Assembly: GCA_038046605.1 (NCBI GenBank)
Contig: JBBSVW010000070.1
Coordinates: 1 to 13,093 of the forward strand
Length of the DNA stretch: 13,093 nt
Direction: 5' to 3'
DNA from: Candidatus Micrarchaeota archaeon
GTDB lineage: Archaea; Micrarchaeota; Micrarchaeia; Norongarragalinales; SBBD01
The position numbers and the translations under genes are program-made. The notes under the pieces were generated by a model, which was given only the letters and a program-made list of their open reading frames with translations, was not told where the DNA came from and ran no database searches. This document shows positions 9,198-12,546 of the stretch, piece by piece. Numbering within the stretch: the first letter of the stretch is position 1; each line of letters opens with the position of its first letter.

Positions 9198-9306
9198 AGT
9201 TTTTGCTTTATTGCATACACGCGCCCCTAGGCTTGCGTTGCGTTAATTTACTAATTTGATAAAACTACCCATAACCAACCCTTTTGCTAAGTTGGGCTTA
9301 TTTTTC

Positions 9307-9344
9307 TGTCGAACTCCTCATCGACAAGTGGCAAAGCTTAAATA
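9307..9344 (+). promoter_or_regulatory. Palindrome TGTCGA-N8-TCGACA followed by BRE/TATA (AAAGC TTAAATA) upstream of the HTH regulator
   Basis: Arms at 9307-9312 and 9321-9326. TATA at 9338-9344 lies about 25 nt before ATG 9367, consistent with a leaderless transcript. Confidence 0.5.
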
Positions 9345-9366
9345 GGAACGAATTCTAGTAGAAAGC

Positions 9367-10056
9367 ATGGAACAATTAAAGGTAAAAATCGCAGGAGAAA
9401 TTTCGCTTTCATCCGATCCGGGGAGCACGATGAAGAAATGGCGCGAAGTGTTTAATATAGCGCAAACTGATCTTTCCCAGTATTTGAAAATTTCGCCATC
9501 AACCATTAGCGACTACGAAAGCAACCGGAGAAAATCGCCGGGAATTGCCGTCATCCATAGGTTTGTTGACGCCCTATTTGCAATTGATTCGCAAAAAGGG
9601 GGAACGACAATCAAGAAATTCCGGGAAGCGGATGAGTCCGGAAGGGGGATGTACGAGGCTATCGAATTCATTAAGCCGGTTTCCGCAAAGGAGTTTGCAA
9701 AACTAATTGAGGCAAAGGTTTTGGCAAATGGCGAAAAACTGGAAACAAAGAGCATTTTTGGGTGCACCATACTTGATAGTGTGCGCGTGATATTGGAATT
9801 GCCATATGAGAGCTTCATAAAAATTTACTCAACCACGTCCGAAAGGGCGCTGATTTTCACGCATGTTTCAACGGGAAGGAGCCCGATGATTGCGGTTAGG
9901 GTTACGCCAATCAAGCCATCGATAATAATCCTCCATGGGATTGATGAGGTGGATAAGCTCGCGGTAAAAATTGCGGAAACGGAGGGGATCCCCCTGCTTG
10001 TGACTAAGCTGGGCGTTGAGGAGATCAAAAAGCGCGTGAAGGATGTAGCATACTAA
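9367..10056 (+). CDS. Archaeal XRE-HTH transcriptional regulator with C-terminal DRTGG-like domain (COG1709-type)
   Basis: KIAGEISLSSDPGSTMKKWREVFNIAQTDL..LKISPSTISDYESNRRKSPG; G.TILDS; ERALIFTHVSTGRSPMIAVRV...KP..IILHG...VDKLAVKIAETEGIPL. Confidence 0.9.
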   Translation: MEQLKVKIAGEISLSSDPGSTMKKWREVFNIAQTDLSQYLKISPSTISDYESNRRKSPGIAVIHRFVDALFAIDSQKGGTTIKKFREADESGRGMYEAIEFIKPVSAKEFAKLIEAKVLANGEKLETKSIFGCTILDSVRVILELPYESFIKIYSTTSERALIFTHVSTGRSPMIAVRVTPIKPSIIILHGIDEVDKLAVKIAETEGIPLLVTKLGVEEIKKRVKDVAY

Positions 10057-10576: not shown

Positions 10577-12022
10577 CTAAGATGCACCATAAGATGGTGA
10601 GGAATACCAGCACAATTTGTTGGCGCCGCTTGCCCTAACTTGTTTTGATGCGTCAGTATCATAAAAACTAATTACGGTATTGCCGGGATTTTTGATGTAG
10701 GCGCAAAAAGCAATGCCATCTTGAGAAGAACCGCAATCGCCAGAGTCAATGTTAAAATTGTTAATCAATTCATCGGGGCTTGCTGCCATGTCCTTGCAGG
10801 CAGTTTCGGAGCCAGGCCCGCCAATTGAAACATTTAGGCCATAGGGCTGGTTTGATACGAAGTCGCATGCAGCTTTAAGCGTGTGGGGGCCAAAATCCTG
10901 CGCATATTTCGTTTTGGCAGCATTTGGATCGGGCAGGGGCATTGGCCCAAAATCGCCAGTGCTAAGGGGCGGAATGAAATCGACATTTTTGCATCCCGAA
11001 TTTGCAGTATTTTTGCCAATGCAGCTCCCATCAATAATGCCGCGCTGCGCGCCAACAGCATCGTTCCTATTCGGATTTGCCCCATATGCCAAGATCCGGT
11101 TGAACCGAAATGCCGCATCGAGGTATTTGAAGAAGGGATAGCTTATCGGTGCATCAAAATCCACATCGCTTATGGATCCGGCACGTATCTTGTTCCCGGC
11201 GCTATCCTCCGCAAGCACTCTTGGGAATTTCCCGAATACATCGGTGTTTTGGATTGCAATGCGCACAAAAAACTGGTTGCCGCCCTCGCAGCCTAAAACC
11301 TTCTTGCCTGCTTTGCAACTGCCATCATCATTGAACTCGCTGCAGCACTCGTAATCATCATCACTTATTATGTCCGTTGCTTGTGAAAACCTATCGCAGT
11401 TGAGCTCCACAGTTGAAACTAGCCTCGAGCAAAGATCATCATGCACTATGCCTTCGGTGCTATCGTAGTGGGTAAATGCGGTCACCGCATCCTTGTTTGC
11501 AGCGGAGAGGGTGATCCCTTCAAAGCTTGTCTGTTCGGATATGATCCTGACAAGTTCGGGGAGGGAAAAAAGGTAGGTCCCATCGGAGGAGGGCTTGGAG
11601 CACACAACCTGCTTCATTATATCCGATGAGCGCTTGCATACAAAGAGCCGCTCTTCACGTTCATCTACCACATCATCATAGGGTTGGGATGGGGTTTGGG
11701 TGTTTTCACATAAAGTATCCCCGGAGCAAACACCCGGCCCGGCCGAGGATAGCGTCTTTTCCGTTTCCAGGTTGATGAAGTTCTGCCAGCATTGGGATGT
11801 TAGCGCGTATTCGATGTTGCGCTGGAGGCCTATGTTGAAAACTGAGCCAAGGTCGCTTCGGTATATTTCGACAACAGAAACCAGCTTGTTGTGGTAGGAA
11901 TCTGAAACGGTTTCAGCAATTGCGGCGGATTCGGATCTGGCAATGTTGATTATTACGAGTATGGCTACTAAGAAAATTAGGGTGCCTATGAGGGGGGCAG
12001 CGATGAAGGCCTTCCTTTGCAT
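10577..12022 (-). CDS. Large Cys-rich secreted/surface protein with class III-like N-terminus (481 aa)
   Basis: True start inferred at ATG 12022: MQRKA|FIAAPLIGTLIFLVAILVIINIA. The ectodomain is acidic with 18 Cys. The longer ORF-track start (12196) would run into the tRNA. Confidence 0.8.
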   Translation of the reverse strand: MQRKAFIAAPLIGTLIFLVAILVIINIARSESAAIAETVSDSYHNKLVSVVEIYRSDLGSVFNIGLQRNIEYALTSQCWQNFINLETEKTLSSAGPGVCSGDTLCENTQTPSQPYDDVVDEREERLFVCKRSSDIMKQVVCSKPSSDGTYLFSLPELVRIISEQTSFEGITLSAANKDAVTAFTHYDSTEGIVHDDLCSRLVSTVELNCDRFSQATDIISDDDYECCSEFNDDGSCKAGKKVLGCEGGNQFFVRIAIQNTDVFGKFPRVLAEDSAGNKIRAGSISDVDFDAPISYPFFKYLDAAFRFNRILAYGANPNRNDAVGAQRGIIDGSCIGKNTANSGCKNVDFIPPLSTGDFGPMPLPDPNAAKTKYAQDFGPHTLKAACDFVSNQPYGLNVSIGGPGSETACKDMAASPDELINNFNIDSGDCGSSQDGIAFCAYIKNPGNTVISFYDTDASKQVRASGANKLCWYSSPSYGAS

Positions 12023-12138
12023 AATTGGTTGAACGGAAGTGTTGGATAAAAAGGTTTTGAACTCTGTCGAAATCAAGTGCAAATGAAGGTTTTGGAAAAT
12101 CATCCCGCTGCGCAATGAAAAATATGGGCCCGCGGAGA

Positions 12139-12278
12139 TTTCCAGCCTTGCCGATATTCGGCGGAGCCGGCAAATTGTTTTCTTTGGCGGCGCCATCGCC
12201 TTTCTTTTTTGAAACCGAAAAGAGCATTGCGCTCTTTACGGCCTCGAAGAAAAAAATCTTCGTGGAGAAAGGCAAGGC
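12139..12278 (-). other. tRNA intron 2 in the T-loop (~59/60, 140 nt, relaxed BHB)
   Basis: Central helix TCCG(54-57)/TGGA, 3' bulge AA|T closed by the T-stem, and an intron-closing helix GCCTTGCC/GGCAAGGC. The exact register could shift by 1-2 nt. Confidence 0.72.
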
Positions 12279-12301
12279 ATCGGACTCCGAATCTCTCGTG
12301 T

Positions 12302-12330
12302 TTTCTCGGACAGATGGATTTGCAAGTCCA
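12302..12330 (-). other. tRNA intron 1 at position 36/37 (29 nt, BHB-type)
   Basis: Central helix TCTT(31-34)/GAGA, 5' bulge AC|T, intron helix GGAC/GTCC, 3' bulge AA|A. Splicing yields the normal Val loop CTTACAC. Confidence 0.8.
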
Positions 12331-12546
12331 GTAAGACGAGCGTCTTGGCCATTCGACTACGAGCCCATAGCCGATAAATATGGTGGAAAAGGTTAAAGAA
12401 AAGGGTGTTTTAACCCGAATTGTCCGGAAAGGGTTGGAGGCAACGCGGAGCTGTTAAAACGGGGGTCGGGCTTTCAATCGGTTCGGAATCGCATGTTTTT
12501 TTAAGAGGGGGGTTGTGATAAATGCAATAATTTAGGGGTGGTCTGT

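Follow-up and report, generated by a model that had tools for sequence, protein, structure and literature searches.

A tRNA-Val(UAC) gene in three exons and a repeated family of T-loop introns in Micrarchaeota

Introduction

The closest described counterparts of the gene reported here, a tRNA-Val(UAC) gene divided into three exons on a 13,093-nucleotide (nt) contig of a Candidatus Micrarchaeota archaeon (GenBank assembly GCA_038046605.1, contig JBBSVW010000070.1), are the transfer RNA (tRNA) genes of ARMAN-2. Multiple and non-canonical tRNA introns, some of them in the T-loop between positions 59 and 60 (59/60), are found in that genome, 56% of its tRNA genes are disrupted, and its splicing endonuclease EndA is of the epsilon2 type (PMC3239211). 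EndA of this type has been reported to cut both relaxed and T-loop bulge-helix-bulge (BHB) introns (PMC3239211, PMC3488258), and the wild-type ARMAN-2 enzyme (4FZ2) cut a relaxed BHB intron from the T-loop of pre-tRNA-Cys in vitro (PMC3488258). The gene described here, which we call Val-UAC, resembles the ARMAN-2 genes in phylum, in enzyme type, in the 59/60 site, in having more than one intron per gene, in its predicted relaxed BHB junctions and in being missed by standard scanners. T-loop 59/60 introns and heavily disrupted tRNAs are thus already published for ARMAN-2, and the gene alone is ordinary for the phylum. What differs is the 140-nt T-loop intron, which here belongs to a repeated, palindromic and sequence-conserved family; the available excerpts of the ARMAN-2 report, its tRNA table aside, mention no related or repeated introns.

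Similar introns have been found in unrelated tRNA genes of Thermoproteales, a pattern referred to as 'intron transposition' and given as of unknown mechanism in the excerpts available of a 2014 review (PMC4090602). The likeness lies in very similar introns across tRNA identities, in a presence that varies among close relatives and in the BHB needed at the junctions; within the present genome, across its order and at the Val-UAC locus, close introns likewise sit in tRNA genes of different identity and come and go among relatives. The Thermoproteales differ in phylum and in their EndA, which is (alpha-beta)2 there and predicted to be epsilon2 here, and the family here is concentrated at 59/60. 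Thermoproteales tRNA introns are mostly short, whereas those described here are 80-200 nt long, branched and palindromic, with relic layouts of duplicated 3' exons.

An integration-border model of tRNA intron gain has been proposed for the tRNA-Thr gene of Caldiarchaeum (Sugahara 2012, PMC3293823). As far as the excerpts available describe it, that system shares with ours a reconstituted tRNA, a tRNA end that flanks the insert as a direct repeat, and several locus states among close relatives. Its insert, however, is 1.8 kb long, carries a recombinase gene and is bounded by a 5'-end repeat, whereas the inserts here are 130-200 nt, hold no gene and are bounded by a 3'-end repeat, and an integrase was not found in the genome. 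Asgard tRNA genes are also heavily interrupted, with many introns missed by annotators, repeated gains and BHB-competent sites (bioRxiv 10.64898/2026.10.13.758758). The same 2026 preprint treats the arrival of archaeal tRNA introns as still open, and its excerpts report neither a general route of arrival nor general copying between tRNA genes, whereas here one family has plainly been copied between them. A literature search returned no account of an order-wide 59/60 intron family in Micrarchaeota whose members are repeated and palindromic, the search not covering the supplementary tRNA table of the 2011 ARMAN-2 paper, which might bear on the point.

Results

Architecture of the Val-UAC gene

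The window, by which we mean the whole 13,093-nt stretch analysed, is all of contig C70 of a 1.64-Mb, 106-contig assembly (G000) that is 90.7% complete. A reading of its letters alone, hereafter the original prediction, had placed on it a tRNA-Val(TAC) broken into three exons by two non-canonical introns. The coordinates proved exact, with syntenic orthologues and an ARAGORN call on the spliced sequence in agreement. The gene, spanning positions 12366 to 12125, is laid out as follows.

12125..12366, minus strand: whole tRNA-Val(UAC) gene, with a precursor body of 242 nt, 73 nt when spliced, CCA not encoded; from the spliced call and syntenic orthologues
12331..12366, minus strand: exon 1, 36 nt, tRNA positions 1-36, holding the acceptor 5' strand, D-arm, anticodon stem 5' strand, C32 U33 and the anticodon UAC; from BLAST of the spliced form
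12302..12330, minus strand: intron 1, 29 nt, at 36/37, with a putative relaxed BHB junction; from orthologue comparison and folds
12279..12301, minus strand: exon 2, 23 nt, positions 37-59, holding A37 C38, the anticodon stem 3' strand, variable region, T-stem 5' strand and T-loop 54-59 (TCCGAT)
12139..12278, minus strand: intron 2, 140 nt, lying at 59/60 of the T-loop, a branched hairpin with GCCTT/AAGGC as its closing helix and a member of the repeated intron family
12178..12226, minus strand: conserved family arm within intron 2, matching the arm model R1 (see below) at E 9.8e-10
12141..12144, minus strand: TGGA near the 3' end of intron 2, pairing with T-loop 54-57 (TCCG) as the 4-bp central helix of the BHB
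12125..12138, minus strand: exon 3, 14 nt, positions 60-73, holding T60, the T-stem 3' strand, acceptor 3' strand and discriminator A73

Introns account for 169 of the 242 nt (70%), the share originally given. Joined in silico, the exons form a 73-mer with a 7-bp acceptor stem (including one G-U pair), U8, a D-arm bearing G18 and G19, and an anticodon stem and a T-stem of 5 bp each; the anticodon loop reads CUUACAC, the variable region is 5 nt long and the last residue is A73. With default settings ARAGORN called this sequence as tRNA-Val(tac) over positions 1-73, the canonical cloverleaf being restored, and a run with relaxed settings, in which all eight possible T-loop junctions were offered, also called tRNA-Val(tac).

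The unspliced gene is invisible to the same tools, as had been anticipated. ARAGORN found 0 genes on the unspliced window and, with introns allowed, 20 genes genome-wide, none of them on the Val-UAC contig. Rfam models had 0 matches on the window at the gathering threshold, and at E up to 10 the region 12050-12450 gave three chance-level matches (E 3.4-3.8) that included no tRNA; the tRNA model RF00005 matched 24 times across the genome and not on this contig. The same searches bear on a self-splicing group I or group II intron, a candidate we rejected, as no ribozyme core appeared among the Rfam covariance models at the gathering threshold and only chance-level matches to unrelated families at E<=10.

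No second Val-UAC gene, for which the original prediction had proposed a search, was found in the 90.7%-complete assembly by ARAGORN, RF00005 or BLAST of the spliced form, and no intact Val gene was among the genome-wide ARAGORN or RF00005 results. BLAST of the spliced form matched only the Val-UAC locus and the ends of a Val(CAC) paralogue on contig C61, which is built alike: beside the anticodon it has a long intron, and at 59/60 a family intron. Because the assembly is incomplete, we describe a second Val-UAC gene as not found rather than as absent.

Orthologous loci fix both junctions

The same exons recur in seven other genomes (G001 to G006 and G009) and on a second contig of one of them (C55 of G002, an assembly with ~4% contamination). 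In G001, G002, G005 and G006, as here, the tRNA gene adjoins the same protein gene, which marks the loci as orthologous:

10580..12022, minus strand: downstream gene for a 481-aa protein with no Pfam family

The longest open reading frame (ORF) here, 10577-12196 on the minus strand, shares sequence with exon 3 and with part of intron 2; its extension to 12196 is probably spurious, and the likelier start of the 481-aa gene is the ATG at 12022.

Exons 2 and 3 are contiguous in 7 of the 8 orthologous loci examined, the exception being G006. Intron 1 is present at the same place after UAC, with a length of 23-35 nt and an uninterrupted T-arm, in G001, G003, G005, G009 and on contig C32 of G002. 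G006 lacks an intron after UAC (loop CTTACAC) and has a family intron at the same T-loop site, and neither intron is found in G004 or on G002 contig C55. The uninterrupted orthologues read T(T/C)CGATT between the same T-stem halves, which sets the site of the predicted 140-nt intron at 59/60. The intron-free anticodon loop is CTTACAC in G006, G004 and G002 contig C55, and intron 1 is placed at 36/37, where the original prediction had put it, because only that junction reproduces this loop. Both junctions (36/37 and 59/60) are therefore fixed to the nucleotide by syntenic orthologues that lack either intron.

The anticodon stem has undergone paired changes across species (CTCGT/ACGAG, CCTGT/ACAGG, TCTGT/ACAGA, TCGCT/AGCGA), and these compensatory changes imply that the gene is under selection for RNA structure. 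The 3' end of intron 1, RAGAAA, is kept in all six species that have it, while its covarying inner helix differs in sequence from species to species and starts at the first or second intron nucleotide, a pattern that would fit a conserved architecture.

Within the genus the Val-UAC locus is found in three states: lacking the T-loop intron (G001, G002 twice, G003, G005), carrying it (G000, G006), and as a relic in G004, where a complete intron-free tRNA is followed by a short spacer, an inverted family arm and a second, diverged copy of the tRNA 3' end. By exon sequence, G004, G006 and G002 contig C55 group together and G000 groups with the others. Since the T-loop intron is found in both exon groups and is absent from members of both, it must have been gained repeatedly or lost repeatedly.

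Splicing enzymes and junction folds

The prediction that the genome should encode an EndA of relaxed specificity is borne out by its single EndA gene, on contig C20. Residues 14-388 of the 388-aa product align to residues 15-387 of ARMAN-2 EndA (4fz2_A, E 3.5e-126), and Pfam assigns tRNA_int_endo in two stretches together with tRNA_int_endo_N. Judged from this full-length match, the enzyme is predicted to be of the single-polypeptide, three-unit epsilon2 type. Almost all of its 80 nearest genomic relatives are labelled Candidatus Micrarchaeota, Micrarchaeia or Norongarragalinales, in keeping with the earlier reading of the lineage, and they place the assembly as a Micrarchaeota metagenome-assembled genome. 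The ligase RtcB is also encoded, on contig C28 (E 2.4e-171).

Unconstrained folding of the precursor gave no cloverleaf, so the four tRNA stems were enforced, at a free energy of -95.2 kcal/mol against -99.4 unconstrained. At the T-loop junction the T-stem then runs into a 4-bp helix between positions 54-57 (TCCG) and intron TGGA, with one G-U pair; the 5' strand continues through a bulge of 2-3 nt (A58 U59, then G) into the inner helix GCCUU/AAGGC, and on the 3' strand a bulge of 3 nt (A A U60) separates the 4-bp helix from the T-stem. As modelled, this is a near-canonical bulge-helix-bulge in which cuts two nt into each bulge would give 59/60. For intron 1, a BHB-like fold pairs C32-U34 with GAG (or U31-U34 with GAGA), followed by the bulge A35 C36 / U, the inner helix GGAC/GUCC and a 5-nt A-rich bulge, and places both cuts two nt past a helix of ~4 bp. 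The claim that both junctions are of BHB type holds closely for the T-loop; the anticodon-loop junction may be a relaxed form, its BHB-like fold lying 1.5 kcal/mol above the local optimum.

From the gene anatomy and the enzymes we infer the following route. The transcript of Val-UAC would be a precursor of ~242 nt with an added leader and trailer, and the single epsilon2-type EndA would cut it at two BHB motifs, two nt into each bulge, the bulges lying ~4 bp apart. The 59/60 cut would use the TCCG/TGGA helix with a 5' bulge of 2-3 nt (A58 U59 / G) and a 3' bulge of 3 nt (A A / U60), and the 36/37 cut the pairing of U31/C32-U34 with intron GAGA, the bulge A35 C36 / U and an enlarged A-rich 3' bulge (AA / A37 C38). 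RtcB would then join the three exons and CCA would be added.

Two short elements flanking the gene, read from its letters, may serve its transcription:

12374..12380, minus strand: A/T-rich box TATTTAT, possibly a TATA element, which lies 8-14 nt upstream of the mature 5' end
12117..12124, minus strand: T-run TATTTTTC, directly 3' of the discriminator, a possible archaeal terminator

A repeated intron family at position 59/60

The 3' half of intron 2 matches many places in this genome and in congeners at 80-93% identity, and BLAST of the Val-UAC gene against its own genome returned 15 further matches. Public assemblies covering the locus (four DNA contig sets) have contig breaks and a depth peak at 12176-12209, and no joints. 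The family copies sit inside tRNA genes directly after T-loop position 59. A genome-wide scan for T-loop introns accepted 25 rows of 6021 candidates, amounting to 22 loci, and a decoy scan of the reversed genome accepted 0 of 5512. Two pairs of alternative rows (contigs C68 and C73) were merged. Candidates on contigs C10, C13 and C79 (position 24402) had an atypical T-loop or acceptor and no family element, and were set aside as doubtful. The 20 credible loci, with introns of 80-199 nt, are Ala-TGC, Met, Ile-like, Asp, Trp, Glu-TTC, Phe, Gly-GCC, Gly-TCC, Lys-CTT, Val-CAC, Ser-GGA, Ala-GGC, Val-TAC, Leu-CAG, Asn, Gln, Lys-TTT, Gly-CCC and Pro-GGG.

At least 15 of these 20 introns contain a conserved arm of ~50 nt, which comprises GCCTTGC, an A/T-rich hairpin of 10 bp and a G/C-rich segment that itself includes a small hairpin. 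Long copies carry the arm twice, in inverted orientation, and so form a branched palindrome; short copies carry one arm and a stub of the other, and in intron 2 of Val-UAC the arm's hairpin loop is expanded by two extra stem-loops. Searching the genome with nhmmer gave 35 rows, equivalent to ~25 distinct arms, of which almost all lie in tRNA loci. The structure that RNAalifold derived from the arm alignment (A1) was poor because MAFFT misaligned sub-families, and the arm model R1, built from 24 copies, is therefore sequence-only. C-G to U-A changes in the 10-bp hairpin were seen by eye, and we make no wider claim of covariation. A K-turn or C/D-box reading of the arm was dropped, as the boxes were not there on inspection by eye.

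Nearly all copies end at their 3' side in GGCAAGGC, one nt, a tetramer and AA. The tetramer pairs with host positions 54-57 at 4/4 nt in 11 of the 20 introns, at 3/4 in 7 and at 2/4 in 2, and it tracks the T-loop variant: TTCA occurs with TGAA or TGGA, TTCG with CGAA, and TCCG with CGGA or TGGA. The summed pairing was 69, a value reached in 0.02% of 20000 partner permutations (mean 64.8). This pairing is what selection for EndA splicing predicts. The 140-nt intron is one copy of a palindromic family that has spread to position 59/60 of ~20 tRNA genes and through many genomes of the order, and we propose that the family is tolerated because each copy has kept or evolved four nt near its 3' end that pair with the host T-loop.

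Copies also occur elsewhere: in a D-loop intron of Arg-CCG on contig C106, upstream of a prolyl-tRNA synthetase (ProRS)-like ORF on contig C93, and after a stop codon on contig C42 of G004. The Arg(CCG) gene (C106 10685-10848, locus L115) is hidden and has its family arm inside the D-loop intron. The single arm on C93 (~9300-9460, L120) lies just upstream of the ProRS-like ORF, whose first ten codons are duplicated (30 nt) beyond the arm on its far side with six differences, all synonymous. A further hidden gene, Leu(GAG)-like, on C62 (3353-3750, L119) combines a D-loop intron with a two-arm T-loop intron of ~250 nt. Separately, a near-identical G/C hairpin, with runs of G and C and a short loop, stands directly 3' of four tRNA genes (C9 23115-23166, C106 10854-10889, C61 9253-9284, C26 10947-10965), and degenerate versions of it open several T-loop introns.

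Distribution across the order and relic layouts

Of the order's 68 genomes, 31 have matches to model R1; these number 36 here, 18-45 in each of the six congeners and 1-27 in each of the remaining 24 genomes. In a sample of the class it matched 13 of 35 genomes within the order and 5 of 116 outside it, the latter all at E 1.6e-5 or weaker. The arm sequence is common to different families of the order, with scores of up to ~55 bits on the 50-position model. Among 17 loci taken from further genera and families of the order, 9 gave a tRNA with a 59/60 insert when rebuilt by the scan (Thr-CGT, Arg-GCG, Arg-CCG, Glu-CTC, Val-CAC, Leu-TAA, Ala-CGC, Ala-GGC and Gln-CTG); the remaining 8 are not evidence of absence, because the scan cannot handle D-arm introns or cut contigs.

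The relic layout of G004 is recurrent: a complete tRNA is followed by a spacer of 130-200 nt ending in an inverted family arm, and then by a second copy of the tRNA's last 17-21 nt. It is found in G000 at C57 9932-10247, on C9 and at C89 ~36690-37013, with identical 3'-end copies at all three sites, and in G058 (L128), G030 (L137), G005 (L004) and G004 (L147). A broad regular-expression scan for duplicated 3' exons was too permissive, and only its three exact or known cases were used. By analogy, the layout looks like the border of an integrated element, with a reconstituted tRNA and a direct repeat.

At the C9 relic, a tRNA-Ile(GAT)-like gene (C9 23167-24700; L140 1668-3199) has no evident 5' acceptor strand. 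An ORF of 277 aa and LAGLIDADG type (Pfam E 1.3e-7) extends into its D-arm; the gene may have a very long intron in which a homing endonuclease is encoded. The one IS200 transposase gene of the genome lies 1 kb upstream, and the downstream side has a family arm followed or accompanied by a second, exact copy of the last 17 nt of the tRNA.

Discussion

We conclude that positions 12366 to 12125 are a functional tRNA-Val(UAC) gene spliced by EndA, to which we give a probability of about 0.88. The original prediction holds because orthologues fix the junctions and an ARMAN-2-like EndA and RtcB are present.

Several observations weigh against this conclusion. The Val-UAC T-loop (12279-12284) has a cytosine at position 55, which in tRNAs is almost universally U (pseudouridine 55). 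The same cytosine is found in uninterrupted orthologues (G002, G010) and in other tRNAs of the genome, and it is not an artefact of the splice model, because uninterrupted orthologues have it too; further tRNAs with it are on G000 contigs C61, C26 (position 14567) and C90, in G002 (L022) and in G024 (L136). The intron 1 junction is not a strict 3-4-3 BHB, and in its local fold of lowest energy (-10.2 kcal/mol) the 5' site is hidden inside a helix, the BHB-like alternative being 1.5 kcal/mol worse. The permutation figure for the tetramer pairing is overstated in that related copies were treated as independent. With 90.7% of the genome in 106 contigs, a second Val-UAC gene could lie on the missing DNA. 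Finally, the public runs that cover this stretch are DNA contigs, none recorded as RNA.

How intron 2 came to lie at 59/60 may be explained in more than one way. One possibility, which we hold tentatively, is that site-specific elements enter the 3' part of tRNA genes and that their borders collapse into T-loop introns that EndA happens to remove. The recurrent layout of a tRNA, a spacer with an inverted arm and a second 3' end (G000 contigs C57, C9 and C89; G058, G030, G005 and G004) is what such integration would leave, at the end of the Glu-TTC intron stands a direct T-loop copy (TTCA) in place of the complement, and the whole resembles the Caldiarchaeum tRNA-Thr model, as far as its excerpts go (PMC3293823). 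However, a check of casposon-like, integrase and retro-element routes found no tyrosine integrase (PF00589), Cas1 or reverse transcriptase in the 90.7%-complete genome; as to a viral or plasmid carrier, two arm patterns had 0 exact matches in viral_contigs, and the intron had no match in phage or plasmid collections. The 130-200-nt spacers are far too short to encode anything, and the Val-UAC flanks show no target duplication beyond AT.

A second route, which we hold just as tentatively, is spread between tRNA genes themselves, either at the DNA level by ectopic gene conversion through near-identical T-arms, or at the RNA level by a reversed EndA/ligase reaction followed by copying back. Copies lie exactly at 59/60 without a consistent target duplication, the T-loop context is common to all host sites, and the same arm sequence is found in different families of the order; in Thermoproteales, similar introns have been transposed between tRNA genes by a mechanism given as unknown in the review excerpts (PMC4090602). 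Against this, a reverse transcriptase was not found in the genome, the flanking homology amounts to a few nt, and the duplicated 3' exons, the D-loop copy on C106 and the copies outside tRNAs would be left unexplained.

That the gene is instead a pseudogene, a tRNA-Val killed when a repeated palindromic element inserted into its T-loop while another gene decodes GUA/GUG, is in our estimation very improbable. It would account for intron 2 being a multi-copy repeat found also outside tRNAs (upstream of the ProRS-like ORF on C93 and after the stop codon on G004 contig C42) and for assemblies breaking at intron 2. Yet the exons are intact, the stems show compensatory change, intron TGGA matches this tRNA's unusual TCCG at 4/4, and another Val-UAC gene was not found in the assembly. 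The same kind of insertion is present in ~20 tRNA genes, including Trp-CCA, Asn-GTT, Phe-GAA and Asp-GTC, with one gene found for each, and these genes cannot all be dead because several are the only gene found for their tRNA.

Least probable of all, and by our estimate highly so, is a miniature IS200/IS605 derivative moved without duplication as single-stranded hairpin DNA by a Y1 transposase: the arms do carry conserved small hairpins, insertion is without duplication, and the genome's only Y1 transposase lies ~1.3 kb from the element copy on C9, but the transposase occurs in 6 of the 31 genomes that have the element and in 11 of the 37 that lack it, 18-45 arm matches are found in G001, G002, G003, G005 and G006 although these genomes have no transposase, the C9 transposase gene is flanked by a hairpin whose sequence is unrelated to that of the arms, and no common left-flank target word was seen. 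We therefore rejected the IS200 transposase as the mobiliser, there being no association across the order, and with it a miniature inverted-repeat transposable element or an IS200/IS605-derived element more generally, for which target duplications or words were not consistent and transposase presence did not track the copies.

We return to the EndA-spliced tRNA-Val(UAC) gene. Here it is the only GUA-reading tRNA found in the genome, and standard scanners miss it together with about half of the tRNA set. Because such genes are missed, tRNA counts and completeness estimates of genomes like this one are misleading.

A further proposal, speculative at present, is that the T-loop intron is a copy of a still-active, order-wide mobile element that colonises 59/60 and survives by supplying a tetramer that pairs with the T-loop and so allows EndA to remove it. 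Searches of the genome for an integrase, a reverse transcriptase, Cas1 or an associated transposase came up empty, so that an active element, if there is one, would point to an undescribed route. On this proposal, the relic layout and the three states of Val-UAC (empty, intron, relic) would be snapshots of a cycle of insertion and loss. Three features of the lineage are useful here: a family that can be recognised and has many recent copies, a single orthologous locus that takes three states inside one genus, and recurrent relics. The intron family and the three-state locus make tRNA intron gain testable and, if the element is indeed active, would provide the first tractable natural system for how archaeal tRNA introns arrive.

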